From assembly GCA_963837465.1 (NCBI GenBank), contig CAWINB010000004.1:266853-330852 (forward strand): a stretch of 64,000 nt of DNA, read 5' to 3'. Position 1 is the first letter of the stretch; every line of letters begins with the position of its first letter. The notes beneath the pieces were generated by a model. The model did no database searches. It saw nothing but the letters and a program-made list of their open reading frames with translations, and was not told the origin of the DNA. Shown piece by piece: positions 1,288 through 18,530 of this stretch. The translations under genes and the position numbers were made by a program. The DNA comes from Candidatus Doudnabacteria bacterium (GTDB lineage Bacteria; Patescibacteriota; Doudnabacteria; UBA920).

Positions 1288-1343
1288 CTTTTAAACTTCG
1301 CTTATAACATCAAAACCTTTAAAGCTTCCTGTAATAGCCAGGC

Positions 1344-1889
1344 CTATAATTTTTCCTTTGCGCAATCCCTTTTTTTCACTTGCCTGGCGGTTTCGTTAAG
1401 GGTTGCGCCGGAGCCGACGGCGTCGTCTATAATAAGGATGTTTTGGTAGCTTCCGGCATCTTCAACAATAATAGTTTTAGCCGCGTTCTCAACTCTGTCC
1501 CCGAGTTTATTCAGGGTTTTTTGGGGAATCGCGATGGTATTTTTTATTTTGGTTACAGCTAATGTCCTTATGGGCAGATTAAGGGATTTCTCCAGTTCTT
1601 TCATTAACTGCACTTCGCGTTTAACCGTAGGCGGCACAAACAACACGCCGTCGATTTTGTATTTTTTTGCCAAAGACAGAACTCGCGGCCTTATATCCTT
1701 TATTAGGCTCTTAATAAGGTTTTTGTTTTGGCTTTGCTTGGCGTACAACAGTATTTGGCCGAGCTTGGTCTTGCCAAAACGTTCTATGCTGTAAAAATCC
1801 AAATAAAATAGTTTATCCAAAAATATTTTCGGGAATGTTTGTTTCATTTTATCCATTCCGTCAATCAGGGGCCTGTTGCCAAATGTCAT
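1344..1889 (-). CDS. ComF-family phosphoribosyltransferase-domain protein
   Basis: C-terminal PRTase motif IIDDAVGSGATLNETARQV. Size and layout resemble ComFC/GntX. Confidence 0.65.
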   Translation of the reverse strand: MTFGNRPLIDGMDKMKQTFPKIFLDKLFYLDFYSIERFGKTKLGQILLYAKQSQNKNLIKSLIKDIRPRVLSLAKKYKIDGVLFVPPTVKREVQLMKELEKSLNLPIRTLAVTKIKNTIAIPQKTLNKLGDRVENAAKTIIVEDAGSYQNILIIDDAVGSGATLNETARQVKKRDCAKEKL

Positions 1890-2070
1890 TTTGGTTAAAA
1901 ATTCATAATTTTGGTCATTCGACCAAAAAAATTTATCAGCTTAACTAAAAGTTAAACGTCAAAATTTGTTTTGACCGACTGCCTCAAAATTCTTAATTTT
2001 TACCTCAAAAGCCCATTTGGCAACAGGCCCATCAGAAGTTTTCATAGTAACCAATATTATAACACAAAAA

Positions 2071-2100
2071 GTTCCTAGTACACTAGGAACTAGGAACTTT
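2071..2100 (-). terminator. Hairpin plus T-run downstream of the TrmB-like gene
   Basis: Palindrome gttcctagt..actaggaac, followed by a T-run on the minus strand directly after the stop at 2110. Confidence 0.5.
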
Positions 2101-2109
2101 TATATGACA

Positions 2110-2853
2110 TTATGTTATCTCCACGCTTTTTGCCCCCCTCCATGAAAGCTCGTAAGCCTGGCGCATAGCATCGGCAATGGCTTTGCTTTCTATAACAATG
2201 GCCATTTTTTCCGCAAAATTCATAAAGGCCAGTTTATTGTTGTAGATGTTAACTTCTATGCCGGTGGTCATCAATTCAGGCGGGACCGCGATGGTTTCCG
2301 AAAGTTCTTGCTTATCATGATGCTTGTTTTTACGTATCCAAATAGATCCTGCCGGAGCTATCCTTCTGGCACGCATATTCAGTTTGACCCGCTGGTTAAT
2401 ATAATCGCCGCTGTAACCGGGCAGGTCTTTAAAATAATCGTCGGTCAGCCACATCAAAATTTCATTGGGCTTTTCCCGCAAAGTATCTTCAAAAACATTT
2501 TTAATTCCCTCAATGCTTTCGTAAAAAGTAACTTTGGGCCTAACCTCATTTTTATTATATATAGCTTCCAATTCGGGCATGGAATTTCTTATGCCTTGTT
2601 CCATTTCTTTAACCAAGAGCAATAACCTTTGCGGTGGTTCGGGCACAAACCTGGTCTTGCCTTTTATTTTAGTTTTTCCCACCACACCGCGGCTAATAAG
2701 ATAGCTTAAAACCGAGTAAGCCGTGGTTCGTTTAACTTTGGCTGTTTCGGCAATGGTCTGGGCACTGGATATTCCACATTCCAGAGCGGCCAGGTAAATC
2801 TTGATTTCGTTTTCCGAGAAACCTAATTTTTTAAGTAATTGATAAGTTTTCAT
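2110..2853 (-). CDS. TrmB-family HTH transcriptional regulator
   Basis: N-terminal MKTYQLLKKLGFSENEIKIYLAALECG winged-helix typical of TrmB. The long ORF extends to 2901; the start at the MKT codon is preferred. Confidence 0.65.
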   Translation of the reverse strand: MKTYQLLKKLGFSENEIKIYLAALECGISSAQTIAETAKVKRTTAYSVLSYLISRGVVGKTKIKGKTRFVPEPPQRLLLLVKEMEQGIRNSMPELEAIYNKNEVRPKVTFYESIEGIKNVFEDTLREKPNEILMWLTDDYFKDLPGYSGDYINQRVKLNMRARRIAPAGSIWIRKNKHHDKQELSETIAVPPELMTTGIEVNIYNNKLAFMNFAEKMAIVIESKAIADAMRQAYELSWRGAKSVEIT

Positions 2854-3015
2854 ATATAATGTCGAATAATTCGTCATTATTATAGTATAAAAAAGGCTCA
2901 ATTGTAAAGAGCTTTTAATACCTAAGACGATTTTTTAGTCAATTATGACTAAAATCATTGACAAAATTAGTAATTTTGTGGTAATTTAATATGTCTTTTA
3001 GTTAATATTAAGCTT

Positions 3016-3948
3016 GTGATTATGAATTGGACATTAGAAATCGACCCCTTATTTCAAACCGCGGGTCTAAAAACTAAGGGCACGGTCTTAATGAACGAGA
3101 ACACTTATGACTTTGACCCTAAAAATCCAAAGGACAGTTGGCTGTATCCGGTATTTTTAGGCCTTCGGGAATTAAAGAGGCAGGGTTTTACAGCTGAAAG
3201 CTTCGCGACCATTGGCACAGGATCGGGCATAGACTCCATTGGGGCGTATGAACTTTTTAGTCCAAAAGAAATTTATCAGGTAGATATACATCCCAATATA
3301 CCTGACATAGCGGACAAAAATGCCAAAGCCTTAATTCGAGGCAGGACAAAAATTAAAACATTTTTAGGTGATTTGTGCCAGCCGTTGATAAAAAGGGGTA
3401 TTAAGGTGGATTTAGCTTACGCCAACATTCCGAATATCCCGTCTCAAGAGTCCGTATTTTATAAAAAGGTCGCGGCTTCCAAGTTTATGGTCCGTGATTA
3501 CGAAGACTGTCCGGAGGTTTTTAAAAAATGGTGCTTGTCTTTGCAGTACCTGTTTTTAAAACAGGCCAAACAAATTCTTAAGCCAGGCGGCGTAGTCGTT
3601 AATGCCGTTGGCGCCCGAGTTCCGTATGAAATTCTAGAGCAGCTTTATGGCAGCTTGGGATATAAAACCAGCGAACTTACCAGCTTATACAAAATCCAAA
3701 GCGAACCGGAAGATACCTTGGCAGGATACGCCAAAGATGAAGTTGACGGGGTTGAGTTTGACTTTTACGATCACGAATTGGCTCAGCCATTTTGGCAAAA
3801 AAATTTGGAAAATAAAAACTTAAACACTCCCCGTCTAAAAGAGGCTTTAAAGCCTTTTAGGATTAGCGCCACCCAAGCCCTGTCGATTTTTGAAAATAAA
3901 GGCAAACAAGCAGGACATATTTGCGGTATTTTTAAATCAGTTCTCTAG
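3016..3948 (+). CDS. Putative class I SAM-dependent methyltransferase
   Basis: Rossmann motif I TIGTGSGIDSIGAYEL followed by an acidic residue. No precise family assignment is possible by eye. Confidence 0.4.
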   Translation: MIMNWTLEIDPLFQTAGLKTKGTVLMNENTYDFDPKNPKDSWLYPVFLGLRELKRQGFTAESFATIGTGSGIDSIGAYELFSPKEIYQVDIHPNIPDIADKNAKALIRGRTKIKTFLGDLCQPLIKRGIKVDLAYANIPNIPSQESVFYKKVAASKFMVRDYEDCPEVFKKWCLSLQYLFLKQAKQILKPGGVVVNAVGARVPYEILEQLYGSLGYKTSELTSLYKIQSEPEDTLAGYAKDEVDGVEFDFYDHELAQPFWQKNLENKNLNTPRLKEALKPFRISATQALSIFENKGKQAGHICGIFKSVL

Positions 3949-3952
3949 GTTT

Positions 3953-4858
3953 ATGCTTAAAAACATTTTACAAGCTATTGGCAATACTCCCTTAGTCCAA
4001 GTTGGTTTTGATACACCAGCCCGGGTCTTCGCTAAACTGGAATATCTAAACCCCGGCGGCAGTATTAAAGACAGATCAGCCTTATATATGGTTGAGGAGG
4101 CAGAAAAATCCGGTTTGCTAAAACCCGGGGGTACCATTATTGAGGCTTCGTCCGGAAATCAGGCTATTGCTCTGGCCATGATTGGAGCCATAAAAAAATA
4201 TAAAGTCATAATTACAGCGCCGGAAATAATTAGCCAAGAAAAACTCGCAGCTATTAAAGCTTACGGCGCGGAGGTTGTAATATGCCCAACATCAAGCTTT
4301 AGAGACCCAAAAAGTTACCATAGTTTGGCCGATAAAATTTTGGCCCAAACACCAAACAGCTTTATGCCTGACCAATATAGAAACATAAAAAACCAGGAAA
4401 CTCATTATAAGTTCACAGGGCCTGAAATTTGGGAACAAACCAAACACAAAGTCACTCATTTTTTTGCCGCGGCCGGTACCGGCGGTACGGTTAGCGGTGT
4501 TGGTAAATTTTTAAAAGAGCAAAATCCGGGTATAAAAATATTGGCTGTGGATGCGGCCGCGTCTTTTCACGCAACCAAAGGCAATCCAAAGCCTTATGCC
4601 ATAGAAAGTATGGGCATAGATTATGACTCGCCTCTTTTAAGCAACAATATTGTAGATGAATTCCTTACAGTTACGGATGAGCAAGCCTTTGATATGCTTA
4701 GAACCATGTCCCATGATTATGGATTTTTAATTGGTACCAGCAGCGGAGCAGCGGCCTTTGCTGCTGCTGAATACGCAAAAAAGTTGAACGGCGACGATTT
4801 GGCCGTTATAATTTTTGGCGATTCCGGACGGGCGTATCTTTCGAAAAATTATTATTAA
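3953..4858 (+). CDS. PLP-dependent cysteine synthase / cystathionine beta-synthase family enzyme
   Basis: PLP lysine motif GGSIKDRSALYM and glycine loop GTGGT. The start is moved to MLKNILQAIGNTPLV to avoid overlap with the upstream gene. Confidence 0.8.
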   Translation: MLKNILQAIGNTPLVQVGFDTPARVFAKLEYLNPGGSIKDRSALYMVEEAEKSGLLKPGGTIIEASSGNQAIALAMIGAIKKYKVIITAPEIISQEKLAAIKAYGAEVVICPTSSFRDPKSYHSLADKILAQTPNSFMPDQYRNIKNQETHYKFTGPEIWEQTKHKVTHFFAAAGTGGTVSGVGKFLKEQNPGIKILAVDAAASFHATKGNPKPYAIESMGIDYDSPLLSNNIVDEFLTVTDEQAFDMLRTMSHDYGFLIGTSSGAAAFAAAEYAKKLNGDDLAVIIFGDSGRAYLSKNYY

Positions 4859-4966
4859 TACTGGTTTATATACCCAATAATCATCTATAAAAAAGCTTGG
4901 CCTTAATGGGCCACGCTTTTTTAACATCACGGGAAATTTTAATTTTGTGATACAATTAAAGCAGTT

Positions 4967-5797
4967 ATGAAAAATCAACAACCCCACCACATCCACCACT
5001 ACCATCGCCATATGAGCATTAGTTATCCCGTGTCTTTGAGGCAGAGGGTTTATACGTTGCTGGTTGTGCCGGTGGTTTTGCTGGTGGCGGCTTTTTTTGT
5101 AATTTCCAGGCTGGGCGGGCACGCGGCGGCGCAGATTGCGGGTATTGGCTGGGGGTTTGTGCTTTCGGCGCTGGCTGTAACTTTTGTGCGGTTGCTTTTG
5201 GCTTATGTTTTAGCCTTGGCCCTGGCGATCCCGCTGGCTTTGCTGATTGAATATAATCCGCATGCGGAAAAAATATTTTTACCGCTGTTTGACGTAATGC
5301 AGTCCGTGCCTGTGCTGGCATTTTTCCCGGTGGTGATTATCTTTTTCGTCCACTATAATTTGTACAATTCCGCCGCGGTGTTTATTTTGCTTATTACAAT
5401 GATGTGGAGCATAATTTTTAGCGTGGTAGGCGGTTTGCGGGTTGTGCCGCAGGACATAAAAGACGCCGGCCGAGTTTTTCATATCCAGGGGTTTGATTAT
5501 TGGAAAAAAGTTTTGCTGCCCGCTGTTTTTCCTTACATTGTCACCGGCTCGCTGTTGGCCTGGGCCGGCGGCTGGAACATAATCATTGTGGCCGAAGTTT
5601 TACACACCTATATTCCCGGCGGCTCCAGCGCCCAGGATTTGTTCGGCATCGGTAGCTTGCTGGTCGCGGCCTCCGCCGGCGGCCAGCAGCGGGTATTTTT
5701 TATGACCCTGCTGGTTTTGGTGATTTTTGTGGCTCTGTTAAATTTATTCGTCTGGCAGAGACTGCTAAAGTACGCGGAGAAATTTAAGTTTGAGTAA
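4967..5797 (+). CDS. ABC transporter permease (SsuC/TauC-type)
   Basis: Multi-transmembrane protein with the binding-protein-dependent transport signature region. It is followed by its ATPase gene. Confidence 0.75.
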   Translation: MKNQQPHHIHHYHRHMSISYPVSLRQRVYTLLVVPVVLLVAAFFVISRLGGHAAAQIAGIGWGFVLSALAVTFVRLLLAYVLALALAIPLALLIEYNPHAEKIFLPLFDVMQSVPVLAFFPVVIIFFVHYNLYNSAAVFILLITMMWSIIFSVVGGLRVVPQDIKDAGRVFHIQGFDYWKKVLLPAVFPYIVTGSLLAWAGGWNIIIVAEVLHTYIPGGSSAQDLFGIGSLLVAASAGGQQRVFFMTLLVLVIFVALLNLFVWQRLLKYAEKFKFE

Positions 5798-5991
5798 CTA
5801 TAATTTTAACCACGCTTGCGTGGTGAATATATAGCATGAATCCGCCGAAACCTGTTTAGTTTATCAGATGGTTTGCTTCGCGGCAAGATTTGGAAAATGG
5901 AAAACGGATAATATTAGGGCGAAGGCGGAGAGTAACCGTGGTCTGTAGCGCGCCGATTTATCGGCTGTATTATTTAAAGACAACTGTAAAT

Positions 5992-6708
5992 ATGGAAAAT
6001 CTACAACCAATAATATCTTTTACCAACGTCGGAAAAATTTACCCCGGCGGGAGCGTGGGTTTAAAGGATGTCAGTTTTAGCGTCAATCCCGAAGAGTTTT
6101 TTGTGCTGGTCGGGCCTTCGGGCTGCGGCAAGTCCACTATACTTAAAATTATCGCGGGGCTTGAAAAGTCCACCCAGGGAACAGTAAAAAAACCGGACGA
6201 TGTTTCCATGGTTTTTCAAAGCGGCGCGCTTTTTCCCTGGCTGGATGTTTACGAAAATGTGGCTTTGGGACTGCGCGCCAAAAACGAAAGCCAAAGGAAA
6301 ACAGAACAGCAATGCGAAAAATATATTGCCATGACCGGCCTTACGGAATTTGTAAAAAAATACCCGCGCGACCTCTCCGGCGGACAGAAACAGCGTGTGG
6401 GCATTGCCCGCGCCCTGGCGGTTGAGCCAAAAGTCTTGCTGCTCGATGAGCCGTTCTCGGCTTTGGACACAGCCACTACGGAAGAACTGCACAGGGATCT
6501 TATTAAAATCTGGCAGGCCACCAAAAAAACCATTGTTATGGTTTCCCATTCCATAGAAGAAGCCGTGGCCCTGGCCGACCGCGTAATGCTTATGAAAGCC
6601 GGCAGTATTGAACAAACCTTCCAAATAAAACTCCCCTACCCCCGCCGCGAAAAAGAAACCGAATTTATGCACGAAGTCCAAACCATCCGGAAAAAGTTTT
6701 TTGAATAA
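5992..6708 (+). CDS. ABC transporter ATP-binding protein
   Basis: Walker A GPSGCGKST, signature LSGGQKQRV and Walker B LLLDEPFSALD. The start is at MENLQP rather than the upstream ORF-track start. Confidence 0.85.
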   Translation: MENLQPIISFTNVGKIYPGGSVGLKDVSFSVNPEEFFVLVGPSGCGKSTILKIIAGLEKSTQGTVKKPDDVSMVFQSGALFPWLDVYENVALGLRAKNESQRKTEQQCEKYIAMTGLTEFVKKYPRDLSGGQKQRVGIARALAVEPKVLLLDEPFSALDTATTEELHRDLIKIWQATKKTIVMVSHSIEEAVALADRVMLMKAGSIEQTFQIKLPYPRREKETEFMHEVQTIRKKFFE

Positions 6709-6995
6709 ATCTTTCCCAGTGCTTATTCGTGCGAATAAGCACTGTATCAAACTATAATAAAATAAGCTCTGTAAAGGAGCTTATTTTATTAATGTAAGGT
6801 CGTTGTTTAAAATTATAGGCTGCATGGCCTGAAGTTCGGCCGTATAAGATAATTCGGGCAAAGGATTTAAGCAGTAGAGCTTTTTGTTTAAGACATGGGC
6901 AAAGCCCATTTCTAAAAAAGTATGTAGCCGCAAATTATGATTTTCATATGCCATTTATTATTTTTTTAATCTCTCTGTAGGATTGATCAAGGCTT

Positions 6996-7307
6996 TTAAA
7001 TAAACTCAATACGCAATCCCAGCCTGAACGCCCTGGCGATTTTTTGTAAAGTATCGGTGGTAAAATTTTGCTTACCGGCTTCCAGTCTCGCTATATTGCT
7101 TTGGGTGGTGCCAAGCTTTTTCGCGAGTTGGGATTGGGATAGCCCTTGTTTTTTACGTAATTGCAGGATTTTGTATGCAATTTGCAATTGCTTGCTAACT
7201 TCACCGTAGTATTTTTTTGCTTCGGGGTTTTTAAGAAGCTTCTCACGGTATAAGTCATAGTTAGTAGGTTTTTTATTCATACAGTTTAGTATACGGTCGT
7301 TCACCAA
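6996..7307 (-). CDS. XRE-family helix-turn-helix DNA-binding protein
   Basis: LSQSQLAKKLGTTQSNIARLEAGKQNFT is a canonical HTH_3 motif. Confidence 0.7.
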   Translation of the reverse strand: MVNDRILNCMNKKPTNYDLYREKLLKNPEAKKYYGEVSKQLQIAYKILQLRKKQGLSQSQLAKKLGTTQSNIARLEAGKQNFTTDTLQKIARAFRLGLRIEFI

Positions 7308-7334
7308 ATGTCAATCTCGCTTATCCACAAGTTT

Positions 7335-7592
7335 TTATGCCGTCAGCGTTAAAACCTGTTTTCTGTTTCTCGGCCACTTTTTTACTTCCGCTTCCCGTTT
7401 TAAAGCTTTACTCCAGGAACGGAATTTTTCATTATAAACAATTTTTCCGCCGCCGTGGGATATTACGTATTTGGAGCCTTTGCCGGAATTATGCGCCAAC
7501 TCGCGCGATTTTAAATCCCTGGTACTGCCGCAATAAAGCGTGCCATCCTTGCATTTTAAAATATAAAAGTAGAACATTTTTTTGTGGACCAT
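7335..7592 (-). CDS. Small GIY-YIG nuclease-family protein (YhbQ/UPF0213-like)
   Basis: FYFYILKCKDGTLYCGSTRDLKSRELAHNSG matches the GIY-YIG core. It is 85 aa and lies 27 nt upstream of the HTH gene on the same strand. Confidence 0.7.
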   Translation of the reverse strand: MVHKKMFYFYILKCKDGTLYCGSTRDLKSRELAHNSGKGSKYVISHGGGKIVYNEKFRSWSKALKREAEVKKWPRNRKQVLTLTA

Positions 7593-7656
7593 TTCGGCGC
7601 AGGTGAAAAATCTATTTACCTTTGGTAAAAGAGATTTACAAAAATATATTAAATTC

Positions 7657-7968
7657 TCATATAGATGGGCTTGTCTTTGTTTCTGAAAATAATCCTGGTT
7701 GAGGCTTTTCAGCCATCTTAGTCAGGGCATGGTCAATAGCTTTGGTATAGGCTGTCGGTTGAAACCTAAGAGCTATATGCGTTCCTGGGAGCGGATAAAA
7801 ACCGTCCACACTATTTTTTGTAAGCTTATTGTGAATTTTTTCAGTCGGAACTATTTTGCTGTCCACAGAGTGAATGATTGATATTTTGATTCCCTTGGCT
7901 CTTAAATCAGCTATAAGTTTTTCTGCATCGGCCGCGGCTATTGCCTTTACGGCACCGTTCCTAGCTTA
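7657..7968 (-). pseudogene. C-terminal remnant of an alpha/beta hydrolase gene
   Basis: The minus-strand frame is open from a stop at about 7968 and reads ...SIIHSVDSKIVP...GTHIALRFQP, which resembles a hydrolase C-terminus carrying the catalytic His. The N-terminal two thirds are missing. Confidence 0.45.
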
Positions 7969-8040
7969 GGTAATAATTTATACAGCTTTCAAGAAAAAGT
8001 ACACTGGAGAGTGTCTGGGTGATTGGAGGATATACCGGTA

Positions 8041-8757
8041 TTAGCAATTAACATACTTAATGGGAAACTGCGCCCCCTTTGCAAAATATTTATCTACCTT
8101 ACCTGGAATGTATTTGTCCCTTATGTCTTGATTGCCTTTAATAGCACTAAACCGCCAGCGTTCCTTTTCTTTTATATAAGACCAAGCTTGTATTTGATAA
8201 ATTTCCTTAACGAGTCCTCTATAAACTGCAAAAGCAAATTGAGGTTGGATAATATGGCGTTTTGGATTAACTGGCCAATCGCCACGAGTAATATTATATA
8301 AGTCGGCTGAAGACATTTCACGATTATAGGTGCGATTTAAGTTTATTAAGATGCTTGGCTCTTCAATTTCTTTTTCCTGTGCCGAATATTTTTCAATAAC
8401 ATCGTAATCGGTCATTTTCCCACGATCGTCAGATTCGTGACCCATTACCATATTGCCTGGGAGATTTTTAAGACCAACAAAATCAATCAAAGCCGCCTCA
8501 ACTTCAAAGGCTTCTTTTTCTGTTAAGCCGTGTCGTATTATGCTATGCCTAACTTGTTGTCCCGAATTAATAATGTCTAATATAATCTTATGATTGGAGC
8601 TTTTAATAGCCTCCTTCTCTACCTCTCGTGCATGGTTATAAACTCTATTTCCTAAACCTTTGCCAATATAAAAGGCATCGCCACTGTCTGGATTCTCCAA
8701 GCAGTAAACATAATATTTTAATCTTTCAATAACGGATTGTGAGAATTTTTTTGACAT
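8041..8757 (-). CDS. GIY-YIG domain protein with an uncharacterized C-terminal domain
   Basis: N-terminus YYVYCLENPDSGDAFYIGKGLGNRVYNH is a GIY-YIG motif. The protein is 238 aa. Confidence 0.6.
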   Translation of the reverse strand: MSKKFSQSVIERLKYYVYCLENPDSGDAFYIGKGLGNRVYNHAREVEKEAIKSSNHKIILDIINSGQQVRHSIIRHGLTEKEAFEVEAALIDFVGLKNLPGNMVMGHESDDRGKMTDYDVIEKYSAQEKEIEEPSILINLNRTYNREMSSADLYNITRGDWPVNPKRHIIQPQFAFAVYRGLVKEIYQIQAWSYIKEKERWRFSAIKGNQDIRDKYIPGKVDKYFAKGAQFPIKYVNC

Positions 8758-8829
8758 ACAAAAAGGGCCACCCCGGGTTGTTTGGAAAAGTGATTTTCAA
8801 GCGATTGCAAATCGTACTAGATTGCAACC

Positions 8830-8903
8830 TGGTGGACCTGGGGGGAATCGGACCCCCGCCTCGGCAATGCGAATGCCGCGTAATACCACTTTACTACAGG
8901 CCC
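8830..8903 (-). tRNA. tRNA-Ala (anticodon CGC), CCA encoded
   Basis: Hand-folded cloverleaf on the minus strand: acceptor GGGCCUG with the G3:U70 Ala identity pair, anticodon loop UUCGCAU, T-arm GGGGG/CCCCC. Confidence 0.8.
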
Positions 8904-8905
8904 AT

Positions 8906-8945
8906 GTTGGAATTTTCCGCCGGAGGCGGATCCGCCTCCGGCGGA
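8906..8945. repeat. GGATCC-centred perfect palindrome, copy a (ttttCCGCCGGAGGCGGATCCGCCTCCGGCGGaaa)
   Basis: 28-bp perfect palindrome with ttttcc/ggaaa flanks. The same element recurs at 12343, 35046 and 62629. Confidence 0.85.
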
Positions 8946-9102
8946 AAGATTTAGGATTTATGATTTGAAGATTTCCGTTTTCGCCAGGAATTCGCAGGAC
9001 AAGCCTTGCGCCATTGAAGATTTAGGATTTGCAAACCACCGCATAATTTTAGCCGATTATGCTAAAGTAGTAAACCCCGCGGCAAATCCGCGCTCGTATT
9101 TT

Positions 9103-12269: not shown

Positions 12270-12342
12270 CCCTTGAAAAGTTCGGTGAAAGTGTGTAAAA
12301 TTATTCGGTGGTTTATAAATCTCGCATCTTCAATCACAAATC

Positions 12343-12378
12343 TTTCCGCCAAGGGCGGATCCGCCTTTGGCGGAAAAT
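12343..12378. repeat. GGATCC-centred palindrome, copy b (imperfect)
   Basis: tttccGCCAAGGGCGGATCCGCCTTTGGCggaaa, immediately upstream of tRNA-Ala(GGC). It is flanked by aaatcctaaat. Confidence 0.7.
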
Positions 12379-12392
12379 CCTAAATTTAATAC

Positions 12393-12466
12393 GGGCCTGT
12401 AGTATAATGGTAATACGGGACTATGGCATAGTTCAGTCGGGGGTCCGATTCCCCCCAGGTCCACCA
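12393..12466 (+). tRNA. tRNA-Ala (anticodon GGC), CCA encoded
   Basis: Acceptor GGGCCUG with G3:U70, anticodon loop AUGGCAU. The 3' half is identical to the Ala-CGC gene. Confidence 0.8.
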
Positions 12467-13929
12467 AAAGAAACTCTCTGGCGATTAGCCACCGCCTTAA
12501 AATCATCTTTCCAAATAAACACAATACTTTTATCACCATTTTCAGTCTTCCACTCAGTGGTTTCCACTAAAGACTTAATAAGCTGACGCTTTTCTTCAGG
12601 GGTTCCTTTCCGATACGTCTGAGTAGGCCTTTTAAGCATTTTTCCAAGCCCGATAATATAATCCATTACATCACTGTCAGCCCGTTCTAAAGCCATTCTG
12701 CGTTCACATAAATCTTGTTCCTTATTAAGTAGTTCAGAATTTTTTACCTTAAATTCATTTTCGGTAATAGTGTTATTCAGACATAGCGTCAGTAGGGCGC
12801 TTTTTTCGTTTTTAAGCTTAGCCGTTTCCAGGTCAACATTTTGGATCTGATTTTTTTGGTCATTTTTTAAATCTTCACGGAATGCTTGGACGGCTTTTAA
12901 AAACTGTGCGGCTTCTTTGTCATCAAATTCCAGCAATTGCAATTGTTTTGCGAACTCATTTTCTACCCATTCCTCTCTAATGTTACACTTACAATCCAAA
13001 TTCCTGCAGGCATAGTAGCGGTATTTATGATGCGAGGAAATGGAACGCAAGGGCTTACCGCAAACACGGCATTTAAGCAGGCCGGAAAACTGGTAAACGA
13101 ACTTTCGGTGGTGCTTGTAACTTTTGTCATCTAAAATTTCCTGCACTTGGTCAAACAATTTTTTGCTTATCAGGGCTTTATGGCTACCTTTTTTTAGCCC
13201 TCCTTTAAACCTGAAAAATCCGTAATAAAAAGGATTGCGTAAAATTTTATACAAAGCCTTGGAGGGCAAAACCTTTGACGGACGTTTCGTAGTAGCCTTA
13301 GTTTTTAGCCCCATATCGGTCAATTTTTTACGCAATTCCTCTATGCTGGTATCGCCATTGGAAAAAATTTCAAACGCCCTGCAAACCATTCGTCCGTAAA
13401 TTGGGTCAGGCTCTTTGTTGCCCCTGCCGACTGAACAGTAGCCGAGCGGGGGAGACATAGGTGATCTTCCATCTTCAACCATGCCATTAATGCCCTTGTG
13501 AATTTCTTGTTTAAGGTTATGCAGATAATACTTTGCTATACCAAATGAAATAGCTGAAAAACCCCAATTAGACTGAGTGCTATTTAGGTTATCTGCAACA
13601 AAATGAATTTCAAACCCTTCTAAAACTAAATCATCACAAACCGCAGCATCATGAAAATTTCTGGCAAATCTATCCAACTTATGCAGGATTAAACCTTTCG
13701 GCTTATAATGCCGCATGTCATTTATCATTTGGTTGAATATTGGACGCTTGTTGTCTTTTGCACTTTGAACTTCTATATATGGTTTGGAGTTTAGCTGAAA
13801 ATTGTTGCGCTTTGCGTATTCCCTAATCTGCCGTTCTTGTTCATCCAAAGAGGCTCCCTCGCTCTGCTCCTCGCTGGAGACACGGACGTAAAAGTAGAAG
13901 AGGCCGTTATGATTATTTTTTTCTGTCAT
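12433..13929 (-). CDS. Large serine recombinase (resolvase catalytic domain + recombinase domain + zinc ribbon)
   Basis: N-terminal YVRVSSEEQ..SLDEQ resolvase motif and a Cys cluster (CRVCGKPL..CRNLDCKC). The C-terminal codons run into the tRNA-Ala 3' end. Confidence 0.85.
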   Translation of the reverse strand: MTEKNNHNGLFYFYVRVSSEEQSEGASLDEQERQIREYAKRNNFQLNSKPYIEVQSAKDNKRPIFNQMINDMRHYKPKGLILHKLDRFARNFHDAAVCDDLVLEGFEIHFVADNLNSTQSNWGFSAISFGIAKYYLHNLKQEIHKGINGMVEDGRSPMSPPLGYCSVGRGNKEPDPIYGRMVCRAFEIFSNGDTSIEELRKKLTDMGLKTKATTKRPSKVLPSKALYKILRNPFYYGFFRFKGGLKKGSHKALISKKLFDQVQEILDDKSYKHHRKFVYQFSGLLKCRVCGKPLRSISSHHKYRYYACRNLDCKCNIREEWVENEFAKQLQLLEFDDKEAAQFLKAVQAFREDLKNDQKNQIQNVDLETAKLKNEKSALLTLCLNNTITENEFKVKNSELLNKEQDLCERRMALERADSDVMDYIIGLGKMLKRPTQTYRKGTPEEKRQLIKSLVETTEWKTENGDKSIVFIWKDDFKAVANRQRVSFGGPGGNRTPD

Positions 13930-14116
13930 ATTTTTTCAGCGTAAAGCTGATCTTTCTGAATTCAGCCTTGGCGAAGTTTAAGGCGCAGAGTAGGGAATAA
14001 GCTCGGCCAAAATCTTTTTGCATTATGCATCTGTTTCTGTCACTTTCTAGTTCAGCTATCTTAGAGCTACATTTTTTTAACCATTCCCATTTTTCTTGCT
14101 TTGACTTAAATTTCAT
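13913..14116 (-). CDS. Hypothetical small basic protein upstream of the recombinase (possible directionality factor, speculative)
   Basis: 67-aa ORF overlapping the recombinase start by 17 nt. No motif recognised. Confidence 0.3.
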   Translation of the reverse strand: MKFKSKQEKWEWLKKCSSKIAELESDRNRCIMQKDFGRAYSLLCALNFAKAEFRKISFTLKKYDRKK

Positions 14117-14352
14117 TTTAAAAAATAAAAAACCACCAGAGCTAAAACCTTTGAGTTGCTTAGACCTAAAGGTTGCTCTAGTGGTGTTATAACTATAGCA
14201 AAATCTTCGCAGGTTTTATACCTTAGGTCTAAGCAATATTAATTTTATACCGTCTAGCTAGTCTGTAAATGGTCAAATCAAAACTAACGTTTTTATTACG
14301 TTTCTAAGTCTTTTAGCTTTTTAGTGTATATATTTATTAAAAGGCTAAAAAA

Positions 14353-16149
14353 CTAGACTTCTTGTTCTCTGTCTGCAAGCGCTGATGACAGTTTGTAAGT
14401 TTTCTTGCCCTTAGCACCTTTTGATTCAAAAATTAGTTTTTCTTCCAGCAAAGCTTTTAGCGCATCATGGACGGCGTTAGCTCCGAGCTTATCTTTTAAG
14501 AGTTTTACTATTTCCTGTCGGGATAGCGTAGTGCCTCCAACAAGAAGCTCAAGGATTTTAGCTTTGGCAACATCTCTTTTTACTTCTTCCTTGAATTCAC
14601 CGACATAGTCAAAACCGAGCTTATCGCCCTGCTGGTTAATGCGAAGCTGAAACGGCTTTAATTCCTCGCCACCGCGTATTTTATTTTGGGAAAAAGTAAG
14701 CGATTTTTCGTTAAAGTTCCGGTCAATCATCAAGTGGGCTTCCACGGCAGCCAGAATGTCGCTAGAGCCACGCATGCTTTGAGAACCTGACCTGCTTTGA
14801 CCAGGCTGTTCTTTTCGGTGATGATGGGTCAGCAGTATCGTAATGCTTTCCCTCAGTAACGGACTAAAACTGTTGAAAAATTCTGCCATTTGCTTGGCGT
14901 CATTTTCCTCTTTTCCATGCACACGCACTAAACTGTCAAAGCAAACAAGTTTGATGTTATGTTCCTTTACAAATTCCAATAGCTTTTCTATATGCTGTTT
15001 GTTATCAACCCGAAATTCGCTTTTAATCCAAAAATAAATCTCCTTACCCTGCTCATGGCCAAGCATTCTTAGTCTGCGTTTAATTTCTCCCCGCTTGTTT
15101 TCCTCATCAATGATCAGCACGTTGCCTTGAGTGGTATTAAAGTGGGAAAAAACGGGTAATCCACTGGCTACAGACTCCGCAAGATGCAACTCAACCCAAG
15201 TTTTAAAACTACGAGGGGCAGCGGATAGGACGGTTATGGCACCAGAAGGAATTAAGCCTTGCACTAACCAAGGAGGTTCTTGTTCAGTTTCTTTTAATAA
15301 GTCATCGGCCAAGATCGGCTGGGTTGCAAATGCTGGCGTCTGTTGGTTATTTTTAAGCTTTCCTCTCTCCTTGTCTCCAATTGAATAGAATACTTGGCCT
15401 AGTTCATCTTCAGGCATTGGCGGAGTATTTTTTTGGTTCCAATCCTGCATATATGGCCATACGACATCAAACCATTTAGCTTCAGGCAGATAATGCATTA
15501 ATTCGCCTGCAATTTGGGCAGCTGAGGAATTACGCTTGCCTTCCGCAACTCCCTTATGAATATTTTGCTCAACTTCTTCCTGGTCATTCTTAACGCCATT
15601 GGCGACTTCATTTTTTATTTCTTTCTTAATAGCTGATATTTCTTTTGGCGAATCACCGTTATTGGCATTTTCCCATTCAAGATACAAAGTTAAAGGGAAT
15701 TCCGCTAACTCTGCATCGTCAAAACTTTTAATCCATTCGTAAATACCCTTTTTTGTTTTTGAAGGGGCTACGATAATGTAGCCCGCCTCTCCTCTGATGT
15801 CCGTTAATTCTCTGATTCTGGTTTTATTGCCTAAGACATAATCTTTTGGAAATTTAAAGAAGTAGTGTCTGCCGTCTCCGCCACTTTTTGCCGTAACAGT
15901 ATCAGGAAGTTCGGGTATAGGCGCACCTTTCTCAAAATCCAAGACCGCTAAACCAGACAGCTTGCCAGTAATGACAGCTATCCCGCTGACATCAGGCCTA
16001 CTAAACCATTCTTTAATTTTTTCTTCTGTAGGTAATTGAGTTTGGTATTTTTTCCAACTTACTAACGGCTTCTTGTCTTGATCTACAGGAAGCAAAGAAA
16101 ACCCTCGTTTTAAGTATGACAATGCCGCCTGTAAAGGTGGCATAAACAT
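14353..16149 (-). CDS. Bifunctional primase-polymerase (Prim-Pol N-terminal) fused to an AAA_25/RepA-like ATPase
   Basis: N-terminal LLPVDQDKKPLVSWKKYQ..GIAVITGKLSGLAVLDFE matches Prim-Pol. The C-terminal half has VLIIDEENK plus a RecA-like P-loop region and HHHRKEQ. Confidence 0.7.
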   Translation of the reverse strand: MFMPPLQAALSYLKRGFSLLPVDQDKKPLVSWKKYQTQLPTEEKIKEWFSRPDVSGIAVITGKLSGLAVLDFEKGAPIPELPDTVTAKSGGDGRHYFFKFPKDYVLGNKTRIRELTDIRGEAGYIIVAPSKTKKGIYEWIKSFDDAELAEFPLTLYLEWENANNGDSPKEISAIKKEIKNEVANGVKNDQEEVEQNIHKGVAEGKRNSSAAQIAGELMHYLPEAKWFDVVWPYMQDWNQKNTPPMPEDELGQVFYSIGDKERGKLKNNQQTPAFATQPILADDLLKETEQEPPWLVQGLIPSGAITVLSAAPRSFKTWVELHLAESVASGLPVFSHFNTTQGNVLIIDEENKRGEIKRRLRMLGHEQGKEIYFWIKSEFRVDNKQHIEKLLEFVKEHNIKLVCFDSLVRVHGKEENDAKQMAEFFNSFSPLLRESITILLTHHHRKEQPGQSRSGSQSMRGSSDILAAVEAHLMIDRNFNEKSLTFSQNKIRGGEELKPFQLRINQQGDKLGFDYVGEFKEEVKRDVAKAKILELLVGGTTLSRQEIVKLLKDKLGANAVHDALKALLEEKLIFESKGAKGKKTYKLSSALADREQEV

Positions 16150-16185
16150 TTAAAAGCAGTTATTAAAATTTGGGGTATTAAAAAA

Positions 16186-16476
16186 TTGGGACAAGAGTTG
16201 CTATGTGTGGAGTTTTTTCCTTATCATTCTTTTAGATTTAAATACTCCTCGAAACTTAAGGTTCCTTCTCAAGTTTTTGCTTTCAATCTAGTGAGGCAAG
16301 CTATGAAAAAGAGCCAACCTATTATCATCATGAGGAGTGCTAAACTGTGGTACAGTCAAGTTAAAGATTTAAAAACTTACAAATACAAAACTATCTTACA
16401 TAATCCCCAAAATCCCTGTGTCACTCCAAACAATATGCGCCGTGGAAAATTTAAAGAAATCTTCCAGTCAAAATAA
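16186..16476 (+). CDS. Hypothetical protein
   Basis: ORF only. An internal start at MKKSQP (16309) is plausible. Confidence 0.25.
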   Translation: MGQELLCVEFFPYHSFRFKYSSKLKVPSQVFAFNLVRQAMKKSQPIIIMRSAKLWYSQVKDLKTYKYKTILHNPQNPCVTPNNMRRGKFKEIFQSK

Positions 16477-16488
16477 AACTTCTGAATT

Positions 16489-16926
16489 ATGAACGATATA
16501 AAACTTGCAATTGAAGATGACTCTGAATTATTGCGGAAATATGGATTGGCAGTAGCTTGTAATAATTCTGTTGAGTATTTATTAGGTCAATATCTAATAT
16601 TAGTCAGTAAATTAAACCAAGCGGATATAGAAACTGTAAATGATTTATTGGATTTTACAGCCTTAAAAAAGAAGGTCGAGCTAAGTGCTAAATTTTTTAA
16701 AAATAAGGAAATTGTAAAATATTTGAATGAAGCTGTGCAGGATAGAAATTTACTTGCTCACGGAGTAAGCGCAAGTACTAACAACCAACACATTTTAATG
16801 CTAAAACGTAAAAATGTTGATTTAGACCAGGAATTACTAGACAAAATAATTAAAAGAGATAAAAATATTTTAGGAATGCTTTATGCAGAAATATTATCAG
16901 CAGGTTTTAAACTTAAGAGTCCCTGA
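16489..16926 (+). CDS. Hypothetical protein with an Rx4H motif (HEPN-like candidate)
   Basis: 145 aa, predicted alpha-helical. The motif QDRNLLAHG fits the minimal HEPN Rx4-6H signature; no other support. Confidence 0.35.
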   Translation: MNDIKLAIEDDSELLRKYGLAVACNNSVEYLLGQYLILVSKLNQADIETVNDLLDFTALKKKVELSAKFFKNKEIVKYLNEAVQDRNLLAHGVSASTNNQHILMLKRKNVDLDQELLDKIIKRDKNILGMLYAEILSAGFKLKSP

Positions 16927-16944
16927 TAAACTAACCTAAATAAC

Positions 16945-17136
16945 ATGCAATTAGATAAAAAATCCACTGAATCTTTTAGAGAGTCATATAAAAAAAGAGG
17001 TTGGGATATGACTGACGCAGAGGCTGAACAAATGAGCATAACCTTAGGCAATTACCTGGAAACAGTTGTATCAATTTATGAAGAAGGTCCAGCATTAAAA
17101 AAAGGGAGTCAAACAACTCCAACGGTTAATTTTTGA
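16945..17136 (+). CDS. Hypothetical small protein
   Basis: 63-aa ORF immediately after the HEPN-like ORF. Confidence 0.25.
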   Translation: MQLDKKSTESFRESYKKRGWDMTDAEAEQMSITLGNYLETVVSIYEEGPALKKGSQTTPTVNF

Positions 17137-17406
17137 GTATTTAAGATATTTTCGTAAATTTGCTTTACTAATGCGAGATAGTGTTTCCACCTATGCCGTA
17201 AGCCTCCACCAAAAGCAAAAGTTTTCCAAAAATTCGTTTTGTGCCTGTAAACATTGATTTTATAGGCTTTCCAAACTCGTCAGATTGATGCTTTTGGGAA
17301 GCCTTTTAAAATTATTTGGCTTAGGGTAAACTGAAAGTGTGGTTCTCTTTCTCCTCAGGTTATCCTAAAGAGAATTAATTTTTTCGATACGCTAATTTAT
17401 TTTACT

Positions 17407-18222
17407 ATGAGAAATGGACTTGAGGGCGGAACGCCTCCTGCGGATTCAACCATAGAAACAAAAGCAAAAAAATGGGAACGGAGAGTTGAAGGCTTTAGAA
17501 AAGCTTACCCCCACATTACAGATGTGCTTAATTACTCTGATCGTCTCCAAGGTGCTAATTCTGGAGACGTTGTTGATATGACAAAAACAGAAGGAGATGC
17601 GGTTGCCGTGGTAAATACGGACACCGGCACTGTTATTTCAAAAAATCGGGAGGCGGTAACAGAAAAGTTATACGGCTGTGCCGGGATTTTTATTGACGGC
17701 CCCGATTGTAATGAAATGGTTCACATGACTCCCAGTTCTAGTTTAGGATATAAATATCATAAATATTCTGCGGAACAACAACCTACCTATGTTGCACGCA
17801 ATGTTGATAAAATCATTTCTTCTCTTCCCGAGAGAACTTCATTAGAACAATGCAGGGCAGTAATTGTGGTAAATATTGCTGACGAATCTTACCCCAAGCG
17901 TAACGATTACCATTATGAAAAACAGTATGCGGCATGGGATAGATTGAAAAAACAGTTTGAAGATTTGGGTCTAAAAAATATTAAAATTGTTGAAGTGCCC
18001 ATGGATGAATCGGCTTTGTATTACACGCCAGAAAGACCGGATAAAATATTGGTTATGGGTCGAAAGATTGGCATAAATCCTGATGGCAGTTATGACAAAA
18101 GCCAAGAAAAAACAGTTGATGAAATATGGGTATCTTTGGATCCAAGAGAAACTGCAGATTATGGAATAAAAAGACCTATGGCAGAGCCAGAGGAGACTTC
18201 ATCATTCAATCAAGCTGCTTAA
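17407..18222 (+). CDS. Hypothetical protein
   Basis: 271-aa ORF with no recognisable motif. It lies between the element and tRNA-Pro. Confidence 0.4.
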   Translation: MRNGLEGGTPPADSTIETKAKKWERRVEGFRKAYPHITDVLNYSDRLQGANSGDVVDMTKTEGDAVAVVNTDTGTVISKNREAVTEKLYGCAGIFIDGPDCNEMVHMTPSSSLGYKYHKYSAEQQPTYVARNVDKIISSLPERTSLEQCRAVIVVNIADESYPKRNDYHYEKQYAAWDRLKKQFEDLGLKNIKIVEVPMDESALYYTPERPDKILVMGRKIGINPDGSYDKSQEKTVDEIWVSLDPRETADYGIKRPMAEPEETSSFNQAA

Positions 18223-18456
18223 TCTGTTGGTGCTCAAGATCATTTCGTAAATCTCCCTGACCAAAGCCAGATAAGTTTTCCACATATACCGTAAACCCCC
18301 GCCACAAAAAAGGCCTTCCCAAGTGGAAGGTCTTTTTTGGCCAGCTGTCGCGTAAAGCTATGGCTGACACAGGCTTCGGCAAATCTTCTTTTGCCGGTTG
18401 TCGTTTTATTCGCTTGCTGGTCTAAGGCGTGAGCCGGACGAAGCCTTGGCGAAGTC

Positions 18457-18530
18457 TGGTCGGGATGCTGGGAATCGAACCCAGTCTCCACGCACCCGAA
18501 GCGTGTGTACTACCGGTATACTACATCCCG
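18457..18530 (-). tRNA. tRNA-Pro (anticodon CGG), CCA encoded
   Basis: Minus-strand cloverleaf: acceptor CGGGAUG, anticodon loop UUCGGGU with G37, T-arm CUGGG/CCCAG. Confidence 0.8.

Follow-up and report, generated by a model that had tools for sequence, protein, structure and literature searches.

The stretch analysed here, hereafter the window, comprises 64,000 nucleotides (64 kb) of DNA from Candidatus Doudnabacteria (contig CAWINB010000004.1, positions 266,853 to 330,852), and the locus described lies at its positions 12,393 to 18,530, from a tRNA-Ala(GGC) gene to a tRNA-Pro(CGG) gene. This locus holds E1, an element of 4745 bp that carries genes for a large serine recombinase (LSR) and a replicase, and its attachment site lies within the open reading frame (ORF) of the LSR. 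The features of the locus are the following, in window coordinates:

12393-12466, plus strand: host tRNA-Ala(GGC), the integration target (ARAGORN; Rfam RF00005, 56.4 bits)
12460-12470, plus strand: attL core TCCACCAAAAG, left copy of an exact 11-nt direct repeat
12471-17215: E1, intact element, 4745 bp
12433-13929, minus strand: LSR, integrated-form ORF, 498 aa (Pfam Resolvase, Recombinase and Zn_ribbon_recom; phrog_95 integrase)
13913-14116, minus strand: 67-aa ORF, overlapping the LSR start by 17 nt
14117-14352: AT-rich intergenic control region, GC ~0.32
14353-16149, minus strand: replicase, 598 aa, with archaeo-eukaryotic Prim-Pol, PriCT_1 and AAA_25 (RepA/DnaB-like ATPase)
16186-16476, plus strand: cargo ORF, 96 aa, no family match
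16489-16926, plus strand: cargo ORF, 145 aa, Pfam HEPN_RiboL-PSP at E = 0.0024, below the gathering score
16945-17136, plus strand: cargo ORF, 63 aa, its 3' end overlapping the tail exon convergently
17109-17204, minus strand: LSR 3' tail segment, 31 codons, an in-frame reconstruction with homologous tails in L002, L003 (two), L004 and P0003
17120-17105, minus strand: terminator-like hairpin on the tail stop codon
17205-17215, plus strand: attR core of E1, right copy of the 11-nt repeat
18306-18340: host bidirectional terminator hairpin, originally 3' of tRNA-Ala, marking the true host junction
18457-18530, minus strand: host tRNA-Pro(CGG) (ARAGORN and Rfam)

The LSR ORF overlaps the 3' end of tRNA-Ala(GGC) by 34 nt (12433-12466) on the opposite strand; residues 1-490 are encoded by the element, and the final eight codons with the stop codon are tRNA-Ala antisense. 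The initial annotation, made from the sequence alone, had described this overlap together with the 67-aa ORF, the 598-aa protein and four plus-strand ORFs (96, 145, 63 and 271 aa), all of which are present as described. It had also proposed the domain content of the two large proteins, which Pfam profiles bear out, with Resolvase (PF00239, 1.3e-20), Recombinase (PF07508, 4.9e-11) and Zn_ribbon_recom (PF13408, 3.4e-10) in the 498-aa protein and Prim-Pol (7e-24), PriCT_1 (3.1e-07) and AAA_25 (3.8e-31) in the 598-aa protein. The 498-aa protein also matches the phrog_95 integrase of PHROG (6e-80), its best NCBIfam similarity is to XisF, far under the cut-off, and no Phage_integrase (tyrosine recombinase) domain was found in the element with Pfam.

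Residues Y14, R16, V17, S18 and Q22 are invariant in seven homologs, and the zinc-ribbon cysteines C287, C290, C308 and C313 are invariant in the homolog alignment. The catalytic S18, within YVRVSS, is aligned to Ser12 of the TP901-1 integrase, and the recombinase call of the initial annotation, which had been made to depend on this serine, stands. On this sequence evidence, a complete LSR with its catalytic serine is encoded by E1. In the public NCBI/ENA gene call (P0001), the protein has 471 aa, matching the C-terminal 95% of the ORF, with its start counted at Leu28; this start codon is probably mis-called, because the catalytic Ser18 would be cut off. The AlphaFold2 model of a homolog, P0003 (mean predicted local distance difference test score 85.6), shows the standard LSR architecture, with long helices at 336-383 and 389-415 and a C-terminal helix at 491-520 of moderate confidence. 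In Foldseek searches with this model, the best matches were the SPbeta, PhiC31, LI and Bxb1 integrases, and its sequence is 14-19% identical to those of LSRs with solved structures. Close homologs of the E1 LSR are few.

Boundaries of E1 and occupancy of the site

The left copy of the core consists of the last bases of tRNA-Ala(GGC) and the next 4 nt. The initial annotation had noticed that this tRNA terminus recurs at 17205-17215 and had taken it as a candidate att core, delimiting an element of about 4.8 kb, which agrees with the measured 4745 bp. The recurrence is exact, with exactly two copies of TCCACCAAAAG in the window, both on the plus strand. By chance, an 11-mer would have ~0.03 additional exact copies in 64 kb with both strands counted, an estimate that does not allow for the free choice of word, and the repeat by itself is statistically weak; it is the comparison with homologous element ends that validates the core. 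Seven distal ends from four contigs were aligned (A, B and C in the window, one each in L002 and L004, and two in L003), and homology begins exactly at the core (TTTTGGTGGA) and extends for ~75-90 nt, with unrelated sequence beyond the core on the other side. A short direct repeat over the last tRNA bases is also found at other copies of the element, with 9 nt in L002 (GGTCCACCA) and 6 nt in L004 (CTACCA), next to the 11 nt of the window. The intersection of these cores is the NNACCA end of the tRNA, and the crossover of E1 would lie within TCCACCA.

Two imperfect direct repeats of ~75 nt are present in the window, A at 17140-17215 and B at 18232-18310, both homologous to the far end of the L002 element. 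Downstream of repeat B come an A-run and then the terminator hairpin (18306-18340), and an A-run and hairpin likewise lie directly 3' of tRNA-Ala at the empty sites L012, L013 and L014 and also at the right junction of L002. This comparison places the host junction at ~18305, and E1 between the CCA end of tRNA-Ala(GGC) and the former terminator of that tRNA, with the tRNA gene intact after integration. The DNA between the attR core of E1 and the host junction is assigned to an older relic, E2, and a third, E3, lies at another tRNA-Ala gene of the window. The features of the two relics are:

17216 to ~18305: E2, relic of an older related element
17216 to ~17290, minus strand: possible LSR 3' remnant in E2, ...VWKAYKINVYRHKTNFWKTFAFGG, last ~25 codons, weak peptide resemblance
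17407-18222, plus strand: 271-aa ORF in E2, no family match
~18202-18298, minus strand: second tail (tail B), GLRYMWKTYLALVREIYEMILSTNRLSSLIE up to a stop codon, frame still open
~18296-18311: degenerate core of E2, with a 3-nt insertion and substitutions
~7580-8829: E3, third relic of the family and more decayed, at tRNA-Ala(CGC)
7580-7702, plus strand: E3 pseudo-tail, a W codon changed to a stop
8041-8757, minus strand: E3 LEM-3-like GIY-YIG ORF, 238 aa
8777-8829, plus strand: E3 LSR 3' remnant VVWKSDFQAIANRTRLQPGG, ~17 codons, reading into tRNA-Ala(CGC)
8830-8903, minus strand: tRNA-Ala(CGC)

The initial annotation had given the span 12393-18530 as a block closed by tRNA-Pro. An intact E1 does lie inside it, together with the older relic E2 and with host DNA, namely the terminator and tRNA-Pro, and the latter does not close the element. 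A single element of 5.8 kb, reaching from tRNA-Ala to ~18305, would require the inner 11-mer and the tail (17109-17215) to be an internal duplication. It would agree with the position of the true host junction (terminator 18306-18340) to the right of the 271-aa ORF and with the still open frame of tail B, and excision of a composite, from attL to site B, can be imagined. This is quite improbable, as in the inner copy the core matches at 11/11 positions, the tail is full and a separate terminator is present, whereas the outer core is degenerate, and the apparent last ~25 codons of another LSR lie upstream of the inner core, which indicates a tandem array. The same tandem structure as in E1/E2 is present in L003, there with both recombinases intact.

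Empty sites were searched for with the 32-nt 3' half of tRNA-Ala(GGC), using one genome per species, and an identical tRNA 3' half is present in eight contigs, five titled Candidatus Doudnabacteria and three titled as Patescibacteria group or Candidatus Saccharibacteria metagenome-assembled genomes (MAGs). The uninterrupted tRNA-Ala locus that the initial annotation expected in related genomes was found, there being no recombinase at the tRNA-Ala(GGC) locus in L008, L010, L012, L013 and L014. The gene order in L010, L012 and L013 is as in the window (wzy, 114-aa ORF, tRNA-Ala(GGC), terminator, tRNA-Pro, abhydrolase, Mur ligase); L014 is a short stretch starting just upstream of the tRNA, in which only the part with tRNA-Ala, tRNA-Pro and the abhydrolase is visible. 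The distance from tRNA-Ala to the abhydrolase gene is 186-383 nt in L010, L012 and L013, 1415 nt in L014 and 6254 nt in the window, and in L008 tRNA-Ala and tRNA-Pro are ~400 nt apart, without an LSR. Identities of the flanking proteins at the empty sites are 45-59% for wzy, 37-51% for the 114-aa ORF, 49-55% for the Mur ligase and 51-59% for the abhydrolase in L010, L012, L013 and L014; the abhydrolase match in L008 has 31% identity, lies ~2 kb from the tRNA and may not be an ortholog. Because the flanking proteins are ~45-59% identical, the genomes with empty sites are regarded as sister species, not strains.

The same site is occupied by a different element in L002. The LSR of this element (P0002) is 65% identical to that of E1 and lies at the same tRNA-Ala(GGC), between the homolog of the 114-aa ORF and tRNA-Pro/abhydrolase; the replicase of this element is not that of E1 but a protein of 504 aa without a family match, its other cargo amounts to ~10 kb, and the host sequence resumes right after GGTCCACCA, in a junction that matches the empty L010 base for base. 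Other relatives use other tRNA genes and overlap them in the same reading frame, including P0004 (55% identity, L004-L006) and P0005 (42%, L176) at tRNA-Glu(TTC), with a 34-nt overlap as in the window, P0008 (39%, L177) at tRNA-Glu(CTC), with a 22-nt overlap, and the second LSR of L003 at tRNA-Ala(TGC), with an overlap over the whole tRNA length. The similarity to XisF and the fact that no excised form was seen would suit a fixed, domesticated and non-mobile island, in which the recombinase is kept for another purpose as for XisF. Such an island is very improbable, given that the sites are empty in sister species, that L002 has a different element at the same site, that relatives are at other tRNAs, and that the genes of E1 are all intact and its core repeat is perfect.

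tRNA-Pro is considered host DNA because it is present at the empty sites, and unrelated to the element because its orientation varies among species, the minus strand being used also in the empty L013. Its role as an element boundary, or in an inversion mediated by the LSR, was ruled out on the same two observations. The minus orientation of tRNA-Pro(CGG) occurs in the window and L013 and the plus orientation in L002, L008, L010, L012 and L014, as a small local inversion independent of the element. In L014, tRNA-Ala and tRNA-Pro are separated by ~1.2 kb of other DNA (140-1300) that includes at least one long ORF, and because of this extra DNA the spot 3' of tRNA-Ala appears to be variable for reasons other than the element. 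In L010, an insert of ~85 nt, rich in hairpins, separates tRNA-Ala from the terminator.

The attachment site in the LSR reading frame

Read on the LSR strand, the core gives the codons F-G-G, which are antisense of the last tRNA bases, and the sequence of the distal end continues the LSR frame after ...SFGG as GLRHRWKHYLALVKQIYENILNTQKLTVGVV followed by a stop codon, giving 521 aa in the reconstructed excised circle. Peptides homologous to this tail follow the core at every other distal end, and the reconstructed excised-form ORFs are in frame in 5/5 cases (516-522 aa). In L003, P0003 is a natural protein of 521 aa with an uninterrupted tail, its gene reading into the next element of the tandem array. 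A tblastn search of the LSR and tail against the whole window revealed E3, with a third, degenerate tail copy at 7580-7657, and no further occurrence of the tail motif was found in six frames of 1.75 Mb of fetched loci. All seven tail copies keep the LSR codon phase across the core; five are open for at least 27 codons, the copy at the L003 junction is part of the continuous 521-aa ORF, and in the seventh, in relic E3, a stop replaces the W codon. The predicted attP junction of E1 is ...GTTTCTTTTGGTGGAGGCTTACGGCATAGG... (...AGAGAGTTTCTTTTGGTGGAGGCTTACGGCATAGGTGGAAAC... on the LSR strand), and the predicted site restored after excision of E1 is ...CAGGTCCACCAAAAGCAAAAGTTTTCC..., also given as ...CCCCCCAGGTCCACCAAAAGCAAAAGTTTTCCAAAAATTCG...

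These reconstructions place attP inside the LSR ORF, an attachment site within the recombinase gene being an addition to what the initial annotation contained. With the attachment site in this position, the protein encoded by the free copy must differ from that of the integrated one. By this reconstruction, integration must swap the last 31 codons for eight tRNA-antisense codons, changing the product from 521 to 498 aa, and must part the gene from its terminator. All recognised domains are kept in the integrated 498-aa ORF, and the tail of ~30 aa is predicted by modelling to be a conserved C-terminal helix. The integrated ORFs end in FGGPGGNRTPD and a stop codon at tRNA-Ala(GGC) and in FGSATENRTPI and a stop codon at tRNA-Glu(TTC), in the same frame.

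Differences among six tails are distributed by codon position as 95/80/131, an excess at third positions, and 50 codon differences are synonymous in the tail frame, more than in the two alternative frames (31 and 13). Among the distal ends, the block AGGTGGAAAAC hardly varies at the nucleotide level. Considering that LSR attP arms are conserved DNA-binding sites, and that the third-position excess is modest, this block could suggest that the conserved distal end of ~90 nt is an attP DNA arm bound by the recombinase and never translated, with the 498-aa protein as the one functional form. This explanation is rather unlikely in view of the LSR codon phase kept in all seven copies, including the continuous ORF of L003, the enrichment of synonymous differences in the LSR frame only, and the terminator that follows the tail stop codon. 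Uninterrupted LSRs with homologous or analogous tails also exist (P0003, P0157, P0158, P0154, P0162 and P0187), among them the distant homolog P0157 with a tail of similar character (...HWKTLFNEIYGYFIRNP...), and by geometry alone the circular form must translate through the tail.

A profile search with the LSR C-terminus and tail gave short gene fragments only and no new full-length tailed proteins. Thirteen distant LSR loci overlapping tRNA genes were searched for direct repeats and gave only 10-12-mers at chance level, and because of this the exchange of tails is regarded as demonstrated for no more than the close subfamily, with identities of 55% or above. L177 (39% identity) is a weaker case, and no tail was found in the L176 contig.

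Reading into a tRNA gene extends further than the close subfamily. Among metagenomic LSR relatives with 26-34% identity and their stop codon on the contig, 29/58 have an antisense tRNA overlap of 12-84 nt, with Asn, Ser, Gln, Gly, Arg, Val, His, Trp and Ala tRNAs. Of 75 LSRs from viral contigs, which are more distant, two have such an overlap; among the viral contigs of IMG/VR, the nearest LSRs reach at most 31% identity. Within their C-terminal 32 residues, 33/114 and 26/134 homologs carry a strict four-residue signature, defined as the antisense translation of the T-arm (DSNP, GIEP, NRTP and similar); an internal window of these proteins, taken as control, contains it in 2 and 4 cases. Because about half of the relatives overlap a tRNA and the C-terminal signature is enriched, reading into the tRNA gene is considered a property of the LSR clade.

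Accessory genes, related elements and older copies

The 67-aa ORF is conserved at the same position and with the same overlap in L002 (68% identity) and L004-L006 (45%), and had no Pfam, PHROG, NCBIfam or PADLOC match. It is possibly translationally coupled to the LSR, and by its position it is a candidate recombination directionality factor or regulator. A UVR-like look of this protein was an impression only, unsupported by any hidden Markov model, and was set aside. Upstream, the AT-rich region 14117-14352 contains a promoter-like site on the minus strand (14269-14242), a perfect 14-nt inverted repeat (14156-14169 / 14223-14236) and two TTTTATACC repeats, making it a candidate operator and/or origin.

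The 598-aa replicase also matches several PHROG primase/polymerase families, and its translation contains the motifs DFE, GRHYFF and TDIRG, a Walker A-like AAPRSFKT and the Walker B VLIIDEE; the presence of these domains and motifs indicates that E1 supplies its own replication initiator. An L003 element has an AAA_25 protein with 38% identity to the ATPase half. The replicase is swapped among the relatives, one L003 element having AAA_25 alone, and L002, L004 and the other L003 element having an unrelated protein of ~480-504 aa, which has no Pfam hit in the precomputed contig annotations. In the cargo of E1, the 96-aa ORF has 39.6% identity over 91 aa to part of a 232-aa ORF of the L002 element, and the 145-aa ORF, which has an Rx4H motif (R86-H91), may, with low confidence, encode a toxin or a nuclease for defence. 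For the 67-, 96-, 145-, 63- and 271-aa ORFs, no usable match came from PADLOC or NCBIfam.

The cargo of related elements was also inspected. The L002 cargo (1200-7900) includes SduA_C (Shedu-like), DUF4238 and Imm_superinfect, and that of L004 (880-7350) a 790-aa SMC_N/ABC ATPase and an M78 peptidase with a helix-turn-helix (HTH) partner. An S24 peptidase, a D12 methyltransferase and DUF7690/7687 are found in L003 (4350-6720), as well as an N6_Mtase/Eco57I-type enzyme and a second serine recombinase of 260 aa in L177 (4625-9910). Judging from these families, the cargo of the related elements is variable, and much of it is of the defence type.

An integrase and a primase-helicase also form the core of satellites of the type of phage-inducible chromosomal islands (PICIs). 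The PHROG matches to phage integrase and primase families and the defence-type cargo of the relatives (SduA_C, restriction-modification and the ImmA/HTH pair), which is of the kind carried by satellites, would likewise be consistent with E1 as a helper-dependent phage satellite or prophage remnant, not an autonomous integrative plasmid. No capsid, terminase, packaging-redirection, transfer or repressor families were found by Pfam, PHROG, NCBIfam and PADLOC in the E1 ORFs other than the recombinase and replicase; the absence of capsid, terminase, packaging-redirection and repressor genes in 4.7 kb, together with the low identity (at most 31%) of the closest LSRs in IMG/VR viral contigs, makes a satellite or remnant a fairly unlikely origin.

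The 271-aa ORF was discarded as E1 cargo, being outside the element bounded by the 11-mer and between the two tails. Its protein has two database homologs only, of which the one with 66% identity (P0142, Joint Genome Institute 3300071358) has SPOUT methyltransferase and Wzy_C genes as neighbours in another genome, where no recombinase is annotated in the vicinity; that locus could be a relic too, or the ORF could be a host gene captured by the element. E2 and E3 each appear to keep both att arms and one cargo gene, without recombinase and replicase, and would be two decayed copies left by repeated use of the tRNA-Ala genes. The tRNA-Ala CGC and GGC loci (8830-8952 and 12338-12466) have ~79% identity over the tRNA and ~50 nt upstream, and because of this identity, which includes the upstream part, they are considered paralogous; both were used as integration sites. 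The host gene adjoining E3 encodes a small GIY-YIG protein, as at the distal end of the L004 element. Near tRNA genes of several Doudnabacteria genomes there are GC-rich palindromic units (TTTCCGCCAAGGGCGGA / TCCGCCTTTGGCGGAAA and GAAGCCTTGGCGAAG), found at 12343-12376 and 18438-18456 in the window and upstream of tRNA-Ala in L010 and L014; these recurring units may be a repeated miniature element.

Proposed mechanism and comparison with known systems

Here it is proposed, with a probability of roughly 0.85, that E1 is an intact, site-specific integrative element of Candidatus Doudnabacteria (Patescibacteria, or candidate phyla radiation, CPR), with attP inside the LSR gene. The steps are drawn from LSR family biology and the domain content. 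The circular form would express the 521-aa LSR from the ORF spanning attP, and an LSR dimer on attP would synapse with a dimer on attB, formed by the T-arm/acceptor end of the tRNA on one side and the A-rich tract and terminator on the other. The circle would be inserted by subunit rotation after cleavage within NNACCA with a 2-bp stagger, which would leave the tRNA intact because only its last bases would be exchanged, and for identical ones. The integrated LSR gene would be re-terminated by the eight tRNA-antisense codons at 498 aa, losing the C-terminal helix and the terminator, and this isoform would be expressed together with the 67-aa protein. Excision, probably aided by the 67-aa protein as directionality factor, would restore the full LSR gene, and the Prim-Pol/helicase would replicate the excised circle, possibly from the AT-rich repeat region (14117-14352).

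Several points weigh against this proposal. The nearest empty sites are from different species, with flanking proteins ~50-59% identical, and the sequences compared are all MAG or metagenome contigs. Exact-protein look-ups with the LSR, the replicase and a flanking gene had no record or led only to the same strain, and gave no excised circle, attP junction or strain-level empty site; the sole other copy of E1, in L001 (run ERR10755945, 3 mismatches), is also integrated. The position of E1 beside an older copy implies recombination with a site in which the outer half did not come from the original host DNA, which is non-canonical for LSRs. The third-position bias of the tail is moderate, and part of its conservation could be at the DNA level, as an LSR-binding arm. 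No convincing dyad symmetry was found in five rebuilt attP sites, where the best centre (z ~2.3) lies outside the identity block, and on this basis no half-site or central dinucleotide is claimed. Replication and transfer functions are assigned from domains only.

A further, speculative and rather unlikely idea is that the C-terminal exchange is a built-in state switch, in a clade specialised on the universal CCA end of tRNA genes. In the 521-aa form, the additional amphipathic helix may tune the enzyme for the integrative reaction of attP with attB, for instance through an effect on the coiled coil or zinc ribbon like that of directionality factors. The 498-aa isoform, without the helix and its own terminator and convergent with the tRNA gene, may, jointly with the 67-aa protein, be the form able to excise the element or one held back from doing so. 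If true, specialisation on the CCA end would explain why close relatives hop between tRNA-Ala and tRNA-Glu and distant members among other tRNA species, and the question is raised of whether a serine integrase encodes its own integration state in its C-terminus.

The genes for tRNAs are the classic landing sites of tyrosine integrases, and E1 and its relatives offer a clean comparative case for the serine family, with empty sites, one site with different elements, tandem relics and a defined core. The use of tRNA genes by serine integrases was described as unknown in a survey of 2014, and as rare and unproven in 2020. In the TIGER survey (PMC7192596), 14/297 elements with serine integrases were in t(m)RNA genes, compared with 44.5% for tyrosine integrases, and these were called previously unreported and in need of experimental proof; in the main text of an LSR survey (PMC10083194), tRNA is unmentioned. 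In the available part of a Mycobacterium prophage survey, overlap with tRNA/tmRNA is given for 16/23 tyrosine-integrase attB sites, and none is reported there for six serine-integrase sites. The clade of tRNA-targeting LSRs is sizeable and common in groundwater-type metagenomes, and few mobile elements are as well delimited as E1 in CPR/Patescibacteria, a group with genomes below 1 Mb. Serine integrases are the preferred tools for insertion of large DNA, and enzymes recognising tRNA ends would have ready targets in many genomes.

With the LSRs of phages and integrative and conjugative elements (SPbeta SprA, Listeria A118/LI, TP901-1, PhiC31 and Bxb1), E1 shares the domain order of catalytic serine, recombinase and zinc ribbon with coiled coil, as well as a short core. 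It differs in its target, the 3' end of a tRNA in place of a protein-coding gene, in the attP inside the integrase ORF, in the extra C-terminal helix predicted to be lost on integration, and in its CPR host. The tRNA islands of tyrosine integrases (Islander/TIGER) resemble E1 in having the integrase by the intact tRNA, a short distal repeat of the tRNA 3' end, copies accreted in tandem and empty sites; the integrase of E1 is of the unrelated serine family. Integrative plasmids and satellites with Prim-Pol/helicase proteins (actinomycete integrative and conjugative elements, archaeal integrative plasmids and PICIs) are also small, with an integrase, their own primase-polymerase/ATPase initiator and few cargo genes, whereas E1 is without transfer, packaging and repressor genes, has a serine and not a tyrosine integrase, and belongs to a group in which the replicase is swapped. 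The genes for hijacking helper capsids and the helper-responsive repressor of PICIs were not found by Pfam, PHROG, NCBIfam and PADLOC in the E1 ORFs other than the recombinase and replicase.

An attP inside the integrase gene is known from the SSV1-type integrases, where integration partitions the gene and the integrated and free forms encode different products. These archaeal tyrosine recombinases are split into two large, presumably inactive parts, whereas E1 would exchange only the last 31 codons of a serine recombinase, keeping the catalytic and DNA-binding domains in one ORF. In the repressor of mycobacteriophage BPs, the segment lost on integration carries a degradation signal; in E1, no degradation tag is evident, and the gene concerned is that of the recombinase itself. 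According to a report on the integration-dependent immunity of BPs and its relatives (PMC4557955), attP lies in the 3' part of the repressor gene and integration yields a truncated product with a different C-terminus, a protein isoform in this way recording the state of the element; the integrase there is of the tyrosine type. For a serine integrase, no description of integration changing the product of the gene that holds attP was found in the open-access literature. What E1 would add to these systems is a clade of serine integrases aimed at tRNA 3' ends, an attachment site in the integrase ORF with state-dependent isoforms, and a CPR case with three generations of copies in 64 kb.

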